This document shows, piece by piece, positions 5,584 through 37,976 of a stretch of 64,000 nucleotides of DNA; the stretch's first letter is position 1; each line of letters begins with the position of its first letter. The notes beneath the pieces were generated by a model. That model ran no database searches and was not told where the DNA came from. It worked only from the letters and a program-made list of their open reading frames with translations. The stretch is from an uncultured Dehalococcoidia bacterium (GTDB lineage Bacteria; Chloroflexota; Dehalococcoidia; Lucifugimonadales; UBA3495), in assembly GCA_964343075.1 (NCBI GenBank), contig CAYFGT010000007.1:4318-68317 (forward strand), written 5' to 3'. The position numbers were made by a program, and so were the translations under genes.

Positions 5584-5967
5584 ATGCCTGTTGAATACTC
5601 TGTTCAATATGGAATGATTGGAATTTTGGCGGTGGTGGCTACTGCAATCCCCACAAGTTTGATTCTCGTTTCGTGGTTGTTAGAGAAAATAGGGTTGCGC
5701 CCAAAGAATCCAACTGAGGTTAAATTGGACCCCTATGAATGCGGGATGGAAGCTATAGGTGGTCCGTGGCATAAATTCAATTTCAAATACTACATGTACG
5801 CTATATTGTTTGTGATTTTTGATGTAGAAGTTATATTTCTGTATCCTTGGGCAGTGAAATTTTTAGATCTGTCTCTTTTTGCCCTTATTGAAATGTTTAT
5901 TTTCGTCGGTATTTTGCTACTGGGCTGGTTGTATGCTTGGAGAAAGCGTGACCTGGAATGGAGATGA
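5584..5967 (+). CDS. nuoA: NADH-quinone oxidoreductase subunit A
   Basis: [26 protein letters not shown]-terminal LEW. Confidence 0.95.
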
Positions 5968-5968
5968 T

Positions 5969-6577
5969 ATGATCAATAACGATTGGCTTAATGAAGGGTT
6001 GTCACTTCCCGAAAGAACCCTTCCCACAGATAGAAAAGAGGGATCTGAAATTCAAGAAATGATCAGTAACTCTGCCGAACCAATTCCAGGAGATGTACTC
6101 GAAATTCCTGATGACTTGCAGAATAATGTCGTAGTAACCTCAGTGGATGCATTGGTAAATTGGGGAAGGAAGTCTTCCTTGTGGCCTGTCTCATTTGGCC
6201 TTGCCTGCTGCGCGTTTGAAATGATGGCTTCAGCAATGAGCAGATTCGACCTTTCTAGATTTGGAATGGAAGTATTCAGAGCATCGCCGCGACAGGCGGA
6301 CTTGTTGATAATAGCGGGTACTGTCACATGGAAAATGGCTCCAGCTATTAAGAGAATATATGACCAAATGCCGGATCCTAAGTGGGTTATATCGATGGGG
6401 GTTTGTGCCACTAGCGGAGGTCCATATTATGGCTCTTATAGTGTTGTCCCAGGAGTAGATCATATAATTCCGGTGGATGTGTATGTGCCTGGATGCCCTC
6501 CAAGACCAGACGCCCTGCTGTATGGGATTATGGAACTCCATGAAAAGATAAAGAAATTCGGCAATCTCAAGAAATGA
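5969..6577 (+). CDS. nuoB: NADH-quinone oxidoreductase subunit B
   Basis: [38 protein letters not shown]. Start moved to ATG 5969, just after the nuoA stop. Confidence 0.95.
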
Positions 6578-6586
6578 TGCGTTAAG

Positions 6587-7030
6587 ATGGTATTAAGAGA
6601 TTTAAATGGGAAAATAGTAGCTGATAAGCTTTTAGAAGTTTTCCCTGGCTGTGTGGATAAAGCTGACAACGATAATGTGTGGGTGCATCCTGAAAATTTG
6701 GTGAAGATAGGTGAATTTCTTAAATCCGAAAATGGCTTCACGATGGACTATCTGAACGCTATCACGGCTGTGGATTTTATAGATCATTTTGATGTTATAT
6801 ATCAACTCACATCCACAGTAACTCAGAATCGTATAGCCATCAGAACAAGCCTCATCGGGCGAGAACACTTGGAGCTTGATTCAGTTATGGGGTTATGGAA
6901 AGGGGCAAATTTACAAGAAAGAGAAATTTGGGATCTGATGGGAATTTACTTTAAAGGTCATCCCAATATGAAACGTTTATTGTTATGGGAAGGATTTGAA
7001 GGACACCCTCTCCGAAAGGATTTTCTGTAG
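6587..7030 (+). CDS. nuoC: NADH-quinone oxidoreductase subunit C
   Basis: EREIWDLMGI.F.GHP...RLL, GHPLRKDF. Confidence 0.95.
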   Translation: MVLRDLNGKIVADKLLEVFPGCVDKADNDNVWVHPENLVKIGEFLKSENGFTMDYLNAITAVDFIDHFDVIYQLTSTVTQNRIAIRTSLIGREHLELDSVMGLWKGANLQEREIWDLMGIYFKGHPNMKRLLLWEGFEGHPLRKDFL

Positions 7031-9364: not shown

Positions 9365-9930
9365 TGTACGGTATAGAAATGGTCAAAGGACTATTGGTTA
9401 CTCTCAAAAATTTCTCTAAGAAACCTGTCACGATTCAATATCCTGAGCAACGAGTTTCTCAGCACCCCAGATTTAGAGGCGAAGAATTCACGTGGTACGA
9501 AGAAAGATGCACTGGATGCGCTTCTTGTGCAAAATATTGTCCTCTCGGAATTATAGAAATTGTTACCGATCCTAGTGAAACCGCTGTAAAACAAGGTGAT
9601 AAATATAAGTTAGAAAAATTTGACATCCAATTATTTCGGTGCATGTTTTGTGGTTTGTGCGTAGAGGCCTGTCCATATGACGCCTTATTCATGGGAAGTG
9701 GATTTGAAGAAGGGAAATACACCCGTAGTGACATGGTTATAACGATTGATGATTTGAGGAATGCTCCGAAAAATCCTTCTACTTGGTATAGACCGCAATT
9801 GGAAGCCAAGAAATATGACCCGAGAAGCGGTCAACAATTGGGCTGGAAAGAAGTAGGGCGAGAATCATGGAATTGGCACAAAAATGAGAAGGCAGGAATG
9901 AGGATCTCTTCGGAATCCGAAGAAGACTGA
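9364..9930 (+). CDS. nuoI: NADH-quinone oxidoreductase subunit I
   Basis: TIQYPE, CTGCASCAKYCP and CMFCGLCVEACP (two [4Fe-4S] motifs); C-terminal extension. Confidence 0.94.
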   Translation: MYGIEMVKGLLVTLKNFSKKPVTIQYPEQRVSQHPRFRGEEFTWYEERCTGCASCAKYCPLGIIEIVTDPSETAVKQGDKYKLEKFDIQLFRCMFCGLCVEACPYDALFMGSGFEEGKYTRSDMVITIDDLRNAPKNPSTWYRPQLEAKKYDPRSGQQLGWKEVGRESWNWHKNEKAGMRISSESEED

Positions 9931-25645: not shown

Positions 25646-27685
25646 TTATTTTGAGGTTCGCTGACGGATTTGCTTCGCAAGAGTATCCGAGTCGTTGGCA
25701 GGCTCGTTACAAGCATAGTTTTCACACATATATGCGGTTGCGTTCCCCGCAATTCGTTGCTTACCTTCCATAATTGGCAATTCAGGCATGTCAGAAGTTT
25801 CTCCAACTATAACCTTGTTTGGCATGTAACTCTTGTGGATTATGGATAGAAAATCTTTTACGTAGTTGTCTCCAATCTCTCCTGTAATTGCAAATTCTTG
25901 TCCGCTATTCAGATACATATCCAGGGCAGATAACCATGTACCAGCTGCTGAAGGAGCACGCATCAATATGGGAGCAACACTCCTTAAAGATTTCTCAGCT
26001 ATCATAGAATATTTTGAATCTCCCGTGATTTTAGATAGCTTGAGTAATAATTTAGTAGCTGCTGATGCTCCACAGGGTTGTGCATTGTCGAAGACTGTAC
26101 GAGGTCTTGTGATAATGATAGGTTCATTATCGGAAGTATCATAGAAACAACTGTTTTGATCGTCCCAGAAAAGTGTGCATAGTTTATCGGACAGAGCGAT
26201 TGACGTTGTTAGATACTTCTGGTCCAAAGTAGATTCGTACAATGTTAACAAAGCGTCAGAGAATAAAGAGTAATCTTCTAGATTTCCATTAATCTTAGAG
26301 GTTCCATTTCGCCATATTCGAGTTAATACCCCATCTGCAGATAAGAGATTGGACAAAATAAAATCAGCATTTTTTACTGCAGTTTGTAAGTATTCGTCAT
26401 TGTTTAGGACTACAGCTGCTTGGGCTAATGATTTCAACATCATGGCATTCCAAGCCAATATGATTTTGTCGTCTTTGAAGGGGGGTACTCTTTTGTATCT
26501 CTCTCCTAGTAATATGTCATTCAAGATAGTGATTTGTTCAGGGTCGGGAGCTGATTTAGGCTGCGAGCTTAGTTTTTTATCGGGCCTACTCAGGATGTTG
26601 TGACCTTCGAAGTTTCCTGATTTTGTGATTGAATAGTTTGTTAGAGCTATTTCAAATAAATCAGCGGGCAAGATGTTCTGTATCTCATCATGCCCCCATA
26701 CAAAATATTTTCCTTCTATACCTTCACTATCCGCATCTTGCGACGAAAAAAATCCTCCATCAGGATGGGTCATGTCGCGGATTATATATTCGATTGTTTG
26801 TTGAACAACCATGTTGTACTCGGAGTTACCAGTGATTATATAGGCGTTTAAGTATGAAGATATTAATAGGGCGTTGTCATATAACATTTTTTCAAAATGA
26901 GGGACCAGCCAGTAGGAATCCGTTGAATACCGATGAAACCCTCCACCGATTTGGTCGTAAATACCGCCATACATCATACAGTCTAGAGTTTTTGTTGCTA
27001 AGTCTAATGATTTTGAGTCGAGGTATTGATTATGGTATTGCAACAGAAAATCAAGAGTCATAGGTTGGGGAAACTTGGGAGAAGTACCAAACCCTCCATT
27101 TTGATAGTCGAAATTTTTACTCAGGGTGGAAACAGCACTCGTTAAAATATCTTCAGTCAATAAAGATTCTTGTGTTACCAGCGACATATTATGACGCAAC
27201 TGCGAAGTAACTTGATCGGATACTTTGGATATTTCTTCGGGTTTAGATGAATACGCTTCAGCTACTGAGGTTAGTACCACATCGAACCCAGGCATTCCAT
27301 GTCGGGCCTGAGGAGGAAAGTAAGTGCCTGAAAAAAAAGGCTTAAGTTCGGGAGTTAAAAACATTGTCATAGGCCATCCACCGCTGCCTGTCATCATTTG
27401 CACAGCTTCCATATATATAGAGTCCAAGTCCGGCCTTTCTTCTCTATCGACCTTAATATTTATAAATAATTTATTCATCAGGTCAGCTATTTGTTCATTT
27501 TCAAATGATTCCTTTTCCATCACATGGCACCAGTGACACGCAGAATAACCAATACTTAATAATATTGGTTTATTAAGAGATTTAGAAAGTTCAAGTGCTT
27601 CGTCACCCCACGGGTACCACTCTACGGGATTTTCTGAATGCTGCAGTAAGTATGGGCTGCTTTCGTTTTTTAATCTGTTAGACAT
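25646..27685 (-). CDS. YyaL/SSP411 family thioredoxin-domain (DUF255) protein
   Basis: [65 protein letters not shown]. Confidence 0.93.
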
Positions 27686-27765
27686 GTGGTTTTAACCTTT
27701 GTGATTTTGTATAATTAATTATAGTACTCAAGTTTAAAACATATAGGAAGTGATAAGGTTAGATA

Positions 27766-28452
27766 TTGCGTAGCATTCTATTAGGTTCGATGGTAATAAT
27801 ATTGGTATTATCTTTGGCTTGTAGCAGCCAAGATAATTCACTAGAAAATAGTATAATCATTCCTGAAAACCAGTTTGTCGAACAACAGAAATCTAAGCCA
27901 GATCAACTTGATCCCGTCTCAAACATTTTCGAATCCTCAGGACAAATAACAGAATCCTCTCCTTTAACGCAAAGTCTCGTTCAGCCACAGATTGCAGTGG
28001 GTCAAACTTCTGCGAATACCCAAGGCTACACCCCCAAATTTGAAGGTCAATTTGAGTTTGAATTATCAACGGGGCTTCAGATTAATAATGAGGATGTTCT
28101 TACTGGGAGACCAGTTTTTATGTTGTCGGTTTCTGAATATTGAGGAACTTGCATGCGCGAGTTACGCGCTCTGGACCCGTTGTCTAAACAATATCCCCAA
28201 ATTGACATTTACATAATTTCCTTGGACAAGAGATCAGATCTACCTGAAATCCAGAAAAAGAATAATGATAAAGGACGGACTTTAACTTTTGTGAGCCCAT
28301 TAGGAGATTCTTTGAAGAGTCTTGGTATATTGAGCAGATCTAACAAAATAGCTTTTGATGAATCAGGCGACATAGTATACAGAGCATCTATGGGGAAAGG
28401 ATCCCCTGGGGACTGGGATTCATTATTTCAAGAATTGGTAAGCGAGTCTTAG
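27766..28452 (+). CDS. selenocysteine-containing thioredoxin-fold (TlpA/redoxin-like) lipoprotein with UxxC motif
   Basis: ORFs 27766..28143 and 28153..28452 are in the same frame, joined by TGA-GGA-ACT-TGC: ...GRPVFMLSVSEY-U-GTC-MRELRAL... at the redoxin CxxC position. N-terminal lipobox LSLAC; hairpin after the UGA; selA in the window. Confidence 0.85.
28155..28169 (+). promoter_or_regulatory. candidate bacterial SECIS hairpin
   Basis: GCGCG-AGTTA-CGCGC, a 5-bp all-GC stem starting 11 nt after the UGA (28141-28143), with G at loop position 2. Confidence 0.65.
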
Positions 28453-30373: not shown

Positions 30374-31469
30374 ATGGAAGATTTGAAGGAAAAAACGCAC
30401 GGACTCCTTATTAGGATAAATGACTTGATGGAGCGTCTTTGACTTAGCCTCTAAGCAGCAATTAATCACCTCAATTGAATTGGAATCTGAAAGTAATGAC
30501 TTTTGGTCAAATCACGAGATTGCTTCCAGTAAAATGCAACAATTGGCGTCACTTAAAGATACGGTGTTATTCTGGACTTCCCTAAAAGATGAATTGAACA
30601 CCCTTTTGGAATTGATAGAGCTTTCTATTTCAGACAATGATACGAGTTTTCGTCATTCAGCTGAAGAAGAACTTGCTAATGCTACTTCTTCTCTAGAAAC
30701 AGAAGAATTTAAACTGCTTTTATCCGGGGAATATGATAGCAGGTCTGCTATAGTAACGATCCAAGCAGGAGCAGGTGGTACTGATTCCCAAGATTGGACT
30801 GAAATGCTTTTCAATATGTATATAAAATGGAGTCAATCACACAATAGATCTATCCAGGTTTTAAATGTTTCTCATGGAGAAGATGCAGGATATAGAACCG
30901 TGACAGTGCAGATCGAAGGGGAATATGCCTATGGTTATTTAGGGAAAGAAACTGGAGTTCATAGATTAGTTCGTCAATCTCCATTTGACCCAAATAACGC
31001 TCGGCACACTTCATTTGCTGTGGTTGAAGTTATACCGGTTGCGTCAGAACATTCAGATCCGGTTATAAGAACTGAAGATATTAAAATGGATGCCTTTAGG
31101 TCTAGTGGACCAGGTGGTCAGAATGTGCAAAAAGTCGCCTCCGCCGTGAGACTGACCCATATACCGACCGGGATTGTCGTTTCTTGTCAGACCGAGCGCT
31201 CCCAGCATCAGAATAGAGAATATGCGATGAGGATTCTCAATGCTAAATTACTAGCAGCAGAAAAAGATCGTAGAGATCAAGAAGTTGCAGAATTACGAGG
31301 AAATCGAGTTAATCCTGAATGGGGTAACCAGATAAGAAGTTATGTATTGCATCCATATAAGCAAGTCAAGGACCATAGAACCGATTTCGTGAGCACAGAT
31401 CCGGGTTCAGTACTAGAGGGTGATATTGATGATTTTATCAAGGCTTACATGGTTTCAACCTTGGCATAA
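30374..31469 (+). CDS. prfB: peptide chain release factor 2, expressed by +1 programmed frameshift
   Basis: ATG 30374 leads to CTT-TGA-C at 30437-30443, preceded by internal SD-like GGAG. The +1 frame continues into the ORF with GAGGTDSQDW, SPF and GGQ motifs. Confidence 0.95.
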
Positions 31470-36608: not shown

Positions 36609-37976
36609 ATGAATATGCAATTAAGAAAAATACCAAGTGTAGAATCAGTGATGAATACTGCGGTATTGCATGATCTAGCTACTAAGTACCCAAGGGAATG
36701 GATTGTAGATGTCATCCGCGAAAAGATAGCAAATAACAGACAAGATGTTCTTTCTGGGGAAGATGTAAAAGATGCGTTAGCCATATCAATTGATGTTGAA
36801 TTACATATCCATAGTATGCTTGCACCCAAGCCACGAAATGTAATAAATGGGACTGGCGTTATTATTCATACGAATTTGGGTCGAGCCCCTTTAAGTGATG
36901 ATAGTATGCAAGCTGCCATTAAGTGCGCAGCTGGTTATAGTGACTTGGAATTAGATTTACATACAGGTAAAAGAGGCGGGCGGTTAGGTACTATAAAAGC
37001 ATTGCTTACCCAACTCACTGGGGCGGAAGATGCTGTGGTGGTTAATAATAATGCTGCGGCGCTATTGTTGGCGTTATCTGCGTTATGTGTAGGTAAGGAA
37101 GTAATAGTGCCTCGGAGTGAAGCCATCGAAATCGGTGGCGGATTTCGGATACCAGATGTTCTAACTCAAAGTGGAGCTAAACTTGTAGACGTTGGGACGA
37201 CCAATCGGACATACATACAAGATTACAGAAGAGCTGTATCCGAGGAAACAGGAGGATTTCTTAAAGCCCATTCGAGCAATTTTGTCATCAAGGGGTTTAT
37301 TCATGAAGTGACAGTGTCGGAATTGTCTGAACTGGGGTCCGAGCTTGATATTCCTGTTATGCATGATGTAGGGAGTGGTGCACTGATAGACACCCGATTA
37401 TACGGACTATCATATGAACCTACTCCTCAAAGCAGTATATCAGAGGGCTCCGATTTAGTGTTTTTCTCCGGAGATAAATTGTTGGGAGGGCCGCAGGCAG
37501 GAATTATTGTAGGGAAATCGAAGTATGTATCGATTTTAGAAAAACACCCAATGATGAGGGCGATTAGAATGGATAAAATGAATCTAGCTGCTCTCTCAGC
37601 TACATTGGCCCATTATATTAAAAATGAACATGAGTCAAAGATTCCTGTCTGGAGAATGATTTCTGCAAGCTTAGATTCCCTAAGAGCCAGGATAAAAGTG
37701 TGGGAAGAGATTTCGAATGAATCTCTTGAAGCTATATCAACTGATTCGGCTATTGGAGGAGGTAGTTTGCCTGGAGAGACTATTCCAACTTATGCACTCA
37801 AAGTTAAGACCTCTCAAACAGCATATAGCGCCCTAGAGATTTTAAGCAAGCTCCGGCATAGCCAGATTCCAATAATTGCAAGGATAGAGGAAGAAGATGT
37901 GCTAATAGATCCCAGAACAGTACTGCCTGAAGATGATGGACATATATGTATGGCGTTAAAAGGAATTTTGAACTAG
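36609..37976 (+). CDS. selA: L-seryl-tRNA(Sec) selenium transferase
   Basis: VINGTGVIIHTNLGRAPL, VVNNNAAA, EIGGGFRIPDV, VGTTNRT, FSGDKLLGGPQAG, RAIR.DK. Confidence 0.95.
   Translation: MNMQLRKIPSVESVMNTAVLHDLATKYPREWIVDVIREKIANNRQDVLSGEDVKDALAISIDVELHIHSMLAPKPRNVINGTGVIIHTNLGRAPLSDDSMQAAIKCAAGYSDLELDLHTGKRGGRLGTIKALLTQLTGAEDAVVVNNNAAALLLALSALCVGKEVIVPRSEAIEIGGGFRIPDVLTQSGAKLVDVGTTNRTYIQDYRRAVSEETGGFLKAHSSNFVIKGFIHEVTVSELSELGSELDIPVMHDVGSGALIDTRLYGLSYEPTPQSSISEGSDLVFFSGDKLLGGPQAGIIVGKSKYVSILEKHPMMRAIRMDKMNLAALSATLAHYIKNEHESKIPVWRMISASLDSLRARIKVWEEISNESLEAISTDSAIGGGSLPGETIPTYALKVKTSQTAYSALEILSKLRHSQIPIIARIEEEDVLIDPRTVLPEDDGHICMALKGILN

Follow-up and report, generated by a model that had tools for sequence, protein, structure and literature searches.

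An in-frame UGA very probably encodes selenocysteine in a predicted thioredoxin-fold lipoprotein of marine Dehalococcoidia

The stretch of DNA considered here (the window) comprises 64,000 nucleotides of contig CAYFGT010000007.1 from an uncultured Dehalococcoidia bacterium (assembly GCA_964343075.1), and its forward strand carries a gene that probably encodes an exported selenoprotein (Table 1). At this locus, an open reading frame (ORF) of 125 amino acids (aa) with a TTG start (27766 to 28143) and an ORF of 99 aa (28153 to 28452) form one frame, the sole interruption of which is TGA at 28141 to 28143. An earlier inspection of the letters alone (hereafter the sequence-only reading) had noticed these two in-frame ORFs, parted by the TGA only, and had proposed a 228-aa selenocysteine (Sec) oxidoreductase gene overlooked by standard gene callers. 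Both the arrangement and the oversight were confirmed, as public gene predictions carry the halves only, namely P0002 (125 aa) and P0057/P0004 (99/97 aa). Around the active site, the read-through product (P0001, in which C stands in place of U) reads ...PVFMLSVSEY-U-GTC-MRELRAL..., which contains the proposed motif V-S-E-Y-U-G-T-C-M-R-E-L, i.e., UxxC followed by xxEL. The N-terminus of the read-through protein is MRSILLGSMVIILVLSLAC, followed by a long stretch rich in S/Q/P/E. A family-profile search of a large protein collection returned seven proteins.

To see how the TGA codon is distributed, 101 genomes from the same taxonomic family were searched in six frames, and 74 of them (source genome counted) contained a match. 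Among the matches listed, every one that spans the site has an in-frame TGA, and the two without it are short pieces covering residues 188 to 227 and 1 to 35. Query position 126 was TGA in all 30 loci that were fetched, in the context U-x-x-C-x-[A/R]-E-L, and the TGA column was kept down to 23 to 30% identity. Public proteins break at the same place: P0003, a 128-aa protein with 49% identity, stops exactly at the same ...VFMLSVSEY, and a HMMER search against 1.84 billion representatives returned 51 matches, many of which are fragments terminating at residue 124/125 or starting past 130, a pattern that would arise if gene callers cut relatives at this spot too. The site was spanned by 30 of the HMMER matches; 19 of these were aligned, the other 11 falling outside the alignment. 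In 18 of the 19 aligned uninterrupted homologs, the site is occupied by Cys, as CxxC, which is the residue that had been expected in homologs at the UGA. Scanning named genomes with the single protein found no relative. A profile search of named genomes, using a tighter alignment, found 67 loci, 59 of which were titled "Dehalococcoidia bacterium" (one of these "Chloroflexi bacterium") and were counted by profile match, irrespective of TGA; the remaining eight were weak partial matches in other phyla.

A hairpin follows the TGA closely. The stem-loop GCGCG AGTTA CGCGC noticed 11 nt past the UGA, with G as the second loop base, is present in the window, and its geometry lies within the values excerpted from PMC13188914 for a bacterial selenocysteine insertion sequence (bSECIS), i.e., 3 to 9 nt for the loop, whose first two bases include G followed by G/U, 4 to 16 bp for the stem, 16 to 37 nt for the spacing, and −7.5 or below for the minimum free energy (MFE). 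The window element has a 5-nt loop, a 5-bp stem, a loop beginning A-G-U, a UGA-to-loop distance of 16 nt, and a folding energy of −8.2 (centroid) or −9.6 (MFE) kcal/mol. In 30/30 loci, a hairpin folds at the same offset after the TGA. Across the ungapped 30-locus alignment, nucleotides G19 to T23 past the TGA are invariant, a block that takes in the synonymous third base of a Glu codon, which is GAG throughout, and a Leu codon restricted to TTR, and the loop is invariant as AGUUR. Covariation was scored over 28 distinct rows for a helix of seven pairs (columns 13 to 19 with 25 to 31). Here, 84.7% of cells were paired and covariation was 0.517, compared to 0.160 in shuffles, of which 0/500 reached 0.517; when the partner was slid by one to three columns as a control, covariation was 0.129 at most. 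Pair 18-26 couples the synonymous third position of an Ala/Arg codon with position two of a Gln/Arg codon; it is formed in every row, by U-A (15 rows), C-G (12), or U-G (one). Pairs 16-28 and 17-27 are swapped jointly in four rows, and the outermost pair, 13-31, is mostly unpaired. With the same position in all loci and compensatory changes within the stem, the hairpin is identified by sequence comparison as the predicted SECIS element of the gene, in keeping with the sequence-only reading.

The Sec machinery was then searched for in the source genome assembly (1.55 Mb, 46 contigs, 95% complete, 40.6% G+C). The selA gene that had been seen nearby is encoded 8.5 kb downstream (Table 1), and both selA and selB, the latter a frame of 634 aa scoring 324 bits, are intact. 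Within the assembly contigs, the best matches to selD were only ThiL-like, AIR-synthase-like, and PurL, and matches to the tRNA-Sec model RF01852 were only tRNA-Ser-like and below the cut-off; aragorn reported 43 tRNAs and no SeC. An incomplete Sec machinery was nevertheless rejected, as synteny with relatives places both selC and selD at contig breaks. Among 20 relatives, selD was above the cut-off in all 20, each copy with one in-frame TGA, so SelD itself is predicted to be a selenoprotein in those genomes. tRNA-Sec scored at least 61 bits in 17 of the 20 relatives, including all three same-genus genomes, in which it lies ~49 kb downstream of the ortholog of the gene. The matching position in the source genome is the end of contig C7, continued by the end of contig C5. 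These two ends share an exact 54-nt overlap and, when joined in a script, yielded a 97-nt tRNA-SeC(UCA) by aragorn, with its parts at C7:81149-81231 (beyond the window) and C5:84903-84957. A tRNA-Sec split over two contig ends with an exact 54-nt overlap indicates that C7 and C5 are adjacent in the genome. Contig C30 stops within selD, and its final 156 bases (C30:10172-10327) carry the 3' end of the gene, coding for 52 residues with 94% identity to the C-terminus of SelD from the same genus. The selB, selC, and selD genes on which the sequence-only reading depended are thus all represented in the assembly. A small thioredoxin-like ORF (142-aa frame, C5:84611-84772) adjoins the tRNA-Sec.

Marine metagenomes and metatranscriptomes from several studies also contain the gene stretch. 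Its TGA is spanned with 0 differences by two contigs, one of 710 nt from DNA of an independent study (X4) and one of 1,990 nt from an RNA library (X3; depth 27.7). TGT or TGC reads had been named as the observation that would overturn a Sec codon; no such variant at the site was listed among the four runs compared, and both bridging contigs carry TGA. The runs X14 and X5 are uninformative here, as neither crosses the TGA with at least 31 letters on each side.

To place the product structurally, an AlphaFold2 (AF2) model was built from a 37-sequence alignment. The predicted local distance difference test (pLDDT) was at least 94 for residues 90 to 228 and 49 to 69 for residues 20 to 89, and a helix was modeled at residues 4 to 14. 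In the model, strand 117 to 122 precedes U126 and helix 127 to 142 follows it directly; the predicted thioredoxin fold requires both halves of the gene. The N-terminal beta-hairpin and the central insert of TlpA/ResA/CcmG-type thioredoxins are likewise present in the model, and the active site U126-G-T-C129-M-R-E132 reads as U/CxxCxxE, with UxxC in 30/30 loci. Foldseek returned ResA (1e-9), followed by TlpA-Sco, SdbA, CcmG, and Etrx2, with target TM of 0.7 to 0.84. Searching the family profile against the PDB returned 2m72 (2e-21) and CcmG/DsbE (3e-17), then ResA and the pneumococcal lipoproteins Etrx1/2. Thioredoxin-fold matches (AhpC-TSA, Redoxin, DsbE, TlpA, and ResA) were obtained for the read-through product across the TGA, and neither half alone matched any family in the Pfam and NCBIfam scans. 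At E ≤0.01, PF00578 was matched by 37/37 family members (best 3.8e-22), PF08534 by 32/37, PF13905 by 30/37, and PF13098 by 12/37; for P0001 alone, PF13905 and PF13098 were not listed at E ≤1.

With regard to export, the lipobox presumably fits the usual lipoprotein pattern, lipoboxes ending ...AC are common to homologs, and the source genome has genes for both Lgt and LspA. The protein is inferred from its sequence to be an exported lipoprotein, lipidated on Cys19 and located at the outer face of the cytoplasmic membrane. The tether region is poorly conserved among relatives. The lipobox LSLAC, the S/Q/P-rich linker, and the thioredoxin fold with UxxC, all of which had been proposed from the letters, were therefore recovered from the sequence, Foldseek, and AF2, the last of which also predicts the linker to be disordered. 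Both Sec and Cys forms share a near-invariant S192-x-K194 ('QSTK'; RSNK in the source genome, where S192-N193-K194 is encoded at window positions 28339 to 28347). This motif aligns with I-P-A of 2m72, which forms the cis-Pro loop, and with the position of Pro144 in CcmG. The clade has no conserved Pro at this place; more distant Cys homologs keep one.

Table 1. Coordinates of the selenoprotein gene, its predicted elements, and selA in the window
Feature	Position	Strand	Remarks
Whole selenoprotein gene	27766..28452	+	228 codons plus TAG stop; TTG start
Putative Shine-Dalgarno-like TAAGGT	27754..27759	+	6 nt upstream of the TTG start; inferred by reading the sequence
Predicted signal peptide with lipobox L-S-L-A-C; predicted lipidated Cys19 at 27820-27822	27766..27822	+	
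Low-complexity S/Q/P/E-rich tether, residues 20-89, predicted disordered	27823..28032	+	pLDDT 49-69
Predicted TlpA/ResA-type thioredoxin-fold domain, residues 90-228, across the TGA	28033..28449	+	AF2, Foldseek, profile against PDB
UGA, predicted to be read as selenocysteine U126; first residue of U-G-T-C, N-terminus of helix alpha1	28141..28143	+	
Predicted resolving cysteine C129 (TGC)	28150..28152	+	Column invariant in both homolog alignments
Predicted bSECIS hairpin: stem 28155-28159 / 28165-28169, apical loop AGUUA 28160-28164	28155..28169	+	
selA (selenocysteine synthase)	36609..37976	+	8.5 kb downstream; TIGR00474 530.5 bits, PF03841 2e-130

Taken together, these data point with high confidence to one gene whose UGA encodes Sec in a TlpA-like exported thioredoxin fold. 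In such a gene, SelB carrying Sec-tRNA(Sec) would recognize the hairpin 11 nt past the UGA at 28141 to 28143, and Sec would be inserted instead of termination. A lipoprotein signal peptide of the Sec type (here the export route) would export the product, Cys19 would be lipidated, and the disordered linker of ~70 residues would tether the domain to the outer face of the cytoplasmic membrane. There, the exposed selenolate of U126 would attack an oxidized extracytoplasmic substrate, either a disulfide or a sulfenic/selenenic species, C129 would resolve the mixed intermediate to give an intramolecular Se-S bond, and a CcdA-like membrane electron carrier would re-reduce that bond. Compared to Cys, Sec has a lower pKa and higher nucleophilicity. 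The roles given to U126, C129, and CcdA are drawn by analogy with ResA, CcmG, TlpA, and Etrx, and we somewhat favor this reductase mechanism with CcdA as the donor. A candidate donor, a CcdA-like membrane protein of 288 aa with two Cys-containing motifs, is encoded on contig C14.

Several observations weigh against this interpretation. Taken on its own, the window hairpin (−9.6 kcal/mol) has z = 0.20, with 101/200 shuffles folding as well or better, hence the weight of the case for a SECIS element and for Sec is comparative; even there, the shuffle counts overstate significance, as this is a coding region sampled from related genomes. One of the 19 aligned uninterrupted homologs, P0012, has Trp at the site, which may reflect translation of a TGA with a different code. 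In Pfam, PF00578 came closest to P0001, at 17.1 bits and E 0.005, below the 26-bit cut-off. P0001 also fell far under the cut-offs of NCBIfam models (TIGR00385, 15.7 vs. 123 bits; NF047696, 12.8 vs. 230; NF002854, 12.3 vs. 170), the DsbE/TlpA/ResA models overall giving 12 to 16 bits against cut-offs of 123 to 359. The clade appears from its sequences to be without the cis-Pro loop typical of TlpA-like reductases, and its chemistry may differ from that of a plain disulfide reductase. In the source assembly, tRNA-Sec is seen only across a contig junction joined by overlap, and selD is represented by its last 52 codons only, the contig stopping inside the gene. The match of the CcdA-like protein is slightly under the cut-off (26.3 vs. 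27.1 bits). Finally, a contig from an RNA library, such as X3, is not proof of transcription, given that DNA may be present in such libraries.

The alternative that survives best keeps the same selenoprotein and gives it another chemistry, that of a Sec-based peroxidase, a sulfenate reductase, or a protein of metal (Cu) handling instead of a disulfide reductase. We consider it unlikely and retain it because S-x-K, near-invariant in the family, stands in place of the cis-Pro loop. Pfam similarity leans the same way, since the best families are AhpC-TSA and Redoxin, and 12/37 members also match SCO1-SenC and four the deiodinase family, and the role of CcmG would already be taken by a canonical CcmG-like gene present separately. 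However, the active site is of the TlpA/ResA/CcmG type and resembles neither TxxC/U of peroxiredoxins nor CxxxC of Sco, the nearest solved folds are all thiol-disulfide oxidoreductases, and the loop replacement is read from a sequence alignment only. As for the separate gene, CcmC-like and CcmF genes are present in the source genome, no ResB match was found in it (95% complete), and a 196-aa Cys-type ResA/DsbE-like protein with WCAPC is encoded next to ccmF. Given this Cys-type gene beside ccmF and the lack of a ResB match, the selenoprotein was dropped as a candidate CcmG, and cytochrome c maturation is probably not its role.

The remaining alternatives deny Sec at the site. If the TGA were a nonsense mutation of a Cys codon and a true termination signal, the gene would be a pseudogene from which only a lipoprotein stub of 125 residues is made. 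Such a stub is what gene callers predict (P0002), and the hairpin by itself is not significant in a single sequence, but this explanation is highly improbable given a TGA in the same column of 30/30 loci down to 23 to 30% identity and the same TGA in contigs from independent samples. The modeled fold would be incomplete without the 3' half, and over the 96 codons past the TGA, dN and dS were 0.071/0.871 vs. G050, 0.192/1.395 vs. G031, and 0.496/1.444 vs. G004; the 3' half is under purifying selection, with dN/dS of 0.08 to 0.14 (G050 and G031). It is also hardly credible that an altered code or a suppressor makes the TGA specify a standard residue (Trp, Gly, or Cys). The W of P0012 is what a call in the style of table 4 would give; however, TGA is an ordinary stop elsewhere in the source genome, where 182 of the 902 ORFs that reach 250 aa or more end in it and the frame would be closed by another stop after a median of seven codons. 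Nor does a standard residue fit a site that aligns with Cys, the usual partner of Sec, in 18/19 homologs, a dedicated hairpin that covaries, and a genome with selA, selB, tRNA-Sec, and the 3' end of selD. Least credible of all are two proteins, a small lipoprotein and an independently initiated 99-residue protein from ATG 28153, for although this ATG lies four codons past the TGA in the source genome, it occurs in 2/30 loci only, the TTG at +7 in most other loci is a Leu codon within the SECIS loop, the 3' half is without a conserved start codon, neither half alone matches a family, and the halves form one domain in the model.

We also scrutinized the genomic neighborhood of the selenoprotein gene. 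A shared context was found in 9/30 loci, which are likely orthologs, consisting of a divergent DUF255/Thioredox_DsbH gene (eight loci) and/or ThrRS (seven loci); in the other loci, which are paralogs, the surroundings differ. Genes for CcdA, Msr, or Sco adjoin the selenoprotein gene in none of the 30 loci. As contexts vary and none of these genes adjoins, no partner can be inferred from the neighborhood. In the window, the divergent neighbor at 25646-27685 (−) encodes a DUF255/Thioredox_DsbH protein of 679 aa that contains CHWC and lacks a signal peptide, and its pairing with the gene in 8/30 loci is seen mainly in closer relatives.

Copy number varied among relatives. Many larger Dehalococcoidia genomes contain two to four tandem paralogs of the Sec lipoprotein, e.g., G087:C1:2361381-2363948, G069:C174:7377-9401, and G032:C2:2844072-2845513. 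One relative, G006, gave nine matches at different places, all of them open frames of 103 aa with one TGA, and four shared one E-value; examples are C4:323686-324021, C6:608328-608663, C7:790482-790817, and C1:624287-624622. A truncated version of the gene seems to have multiplied in this genome, possibly on a repeat or mobile element. In P0008, a Cys form, the C-terminal extension ends in ...FLFFAATW, which suggests that a second domain, containing Sec, may come next.

A second site of UGA recoding in the window lies at a distance of 2.3 kb from this gene. It belongs to prfB, for release factor 2 (30374-31469, +; TIGR00020, 428 bits), which undergoes the well-known +1 programmed frameshift: its leader of 22 codons in frame 0 runs from ATG 30374 to CTT TGA C (30437-30443), after which reading would proceed in the main frame from GAC 30441 and enter the ORF listed from 30480. 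There were 13 other candidate pairs of ORFs with an in-frame TGA in the window, two of which were scanned against Pfam. The pair at TGA 6575 (5867-7027, +) was rejected as a selenoprotein, being ordinary adjacent nuoB-like (PF01058) and nuoC-like (PF00329) genes in one frame, and the candidate at 9831(−) matched no family in the Pfam scan.

Known partners of ResA/CcmG/TlpA/Etrx-type proteins are apocytochrome c, Sco/CuA, and MsrAB. The predicted protein shares its fold, the N-terminal beta-hairpin, and C/UxxCxxE with ResA (1su9, 4nmu), CcmG/DsbE (2b1k, 2g0f), TlpA (4txo), and Etrx1/Etrx2 (2yp6, 4hqz). Like them, it would be membrane-tethered outside the cytoplasm, with a CcdA-type donor encoded in the source genome, and the Etrx proteins are also lipoproteins according to their PDB titles. 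Unlike them, it appears from its sequence to have Sec in place of the N-terminal Cys and S-T/N-K in place of the cis-Pro loop, and it further differs from CcmG in that the source genome has a separate canonical CcmG-like gene. Other Sec-containing ResA/TlpA-like redoxins are described by NCBIfam NF041054 (ResA-like WAxxUGC) and NF053656 (TUGYCR-motif thioredoxin fold). At E ≤1, P0001 had no match to either model, the motif of the present clade being [YWT]-U-[GPS]-x-C. The clade therefore seems to be without a dedicated NCBIfam model, which would explain its split annotation.

Catalogues of prokaryotic selenoproteomes, as excerpted, include a 'Prx-like protein' or 'Prx-like thiol:disulfide oxidoreductase' (PF00578, UxxC/UxxU) (PMC13188914, PMC9312934), and a Prx-like family of 22 sequences, distant from Prx and with a thioredoxin-like UXXC, is described from the Sargasso Sea (PMC1088965). 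Going by these descriptions, the present family resembles the Prx-like selenoproteins in its distant PF00578 homology, UxxC instead of TxxU, marine metagenomic origin, and Cys homologs. It differs in that P0001 is under the Pfam cut-off, and the likeness is to the class description rather than to exemplar sequences. The class descriptions excerpted from the catalogues make no mention of the lipoprotein anchor, long linker, and loss of the cis-Pro loop that mark this clade. Catalogued TlpA-like thioredoxin-fold selenoproteins, as far as their entries go, have UxxC in common with this family, which matches PF13905 (30/37) and PF13098 (12/37). Entries in BSepDB include Dehalococcoidia genomes with 46 to 49 selenoprotein genes. 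The predicted protein fits the 'Prx-like / thiol-disulfide' classes of catalogued UxxC selenoproteins. This kind of marine selenoprotein has been known since 2004 to 2005, and the gene described here is a genuine added member of it that was overlooked by gene callers.

Because the gene is stored as two halves and no NCBIfam model reaches it, automated pipelines will keep missing a family that was found in 74/101 sampled genomes of the same taxonomic family. Similarly, a genome may appear to lack selC or selD merely through contig breaks inside them, both of which were resolved here by synteny with relatives. A more far-reaching view, which we hold to be doubtful, is that the 'QSTK' clade, with Sec and Cys forms, no cis-Pro loop, a lipid anchor on a long tether, and often two to four tandem or dispersed paralogs per marine Dehalococcoidia genome, would constitute a distinct family of cell-surface selenoenzymes with chemistry or substrates beyond those of ResA, CcmG, TlpA, and Etrx. 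If so, the family might act on surface proteins or on dissolved organic matter, reducing peroxide or oxidized sulfur species there. The gene is in line with the heavy use of selenium that marks marine Dehalococcoidia, and it puts a predicted selenol at the cell surface.

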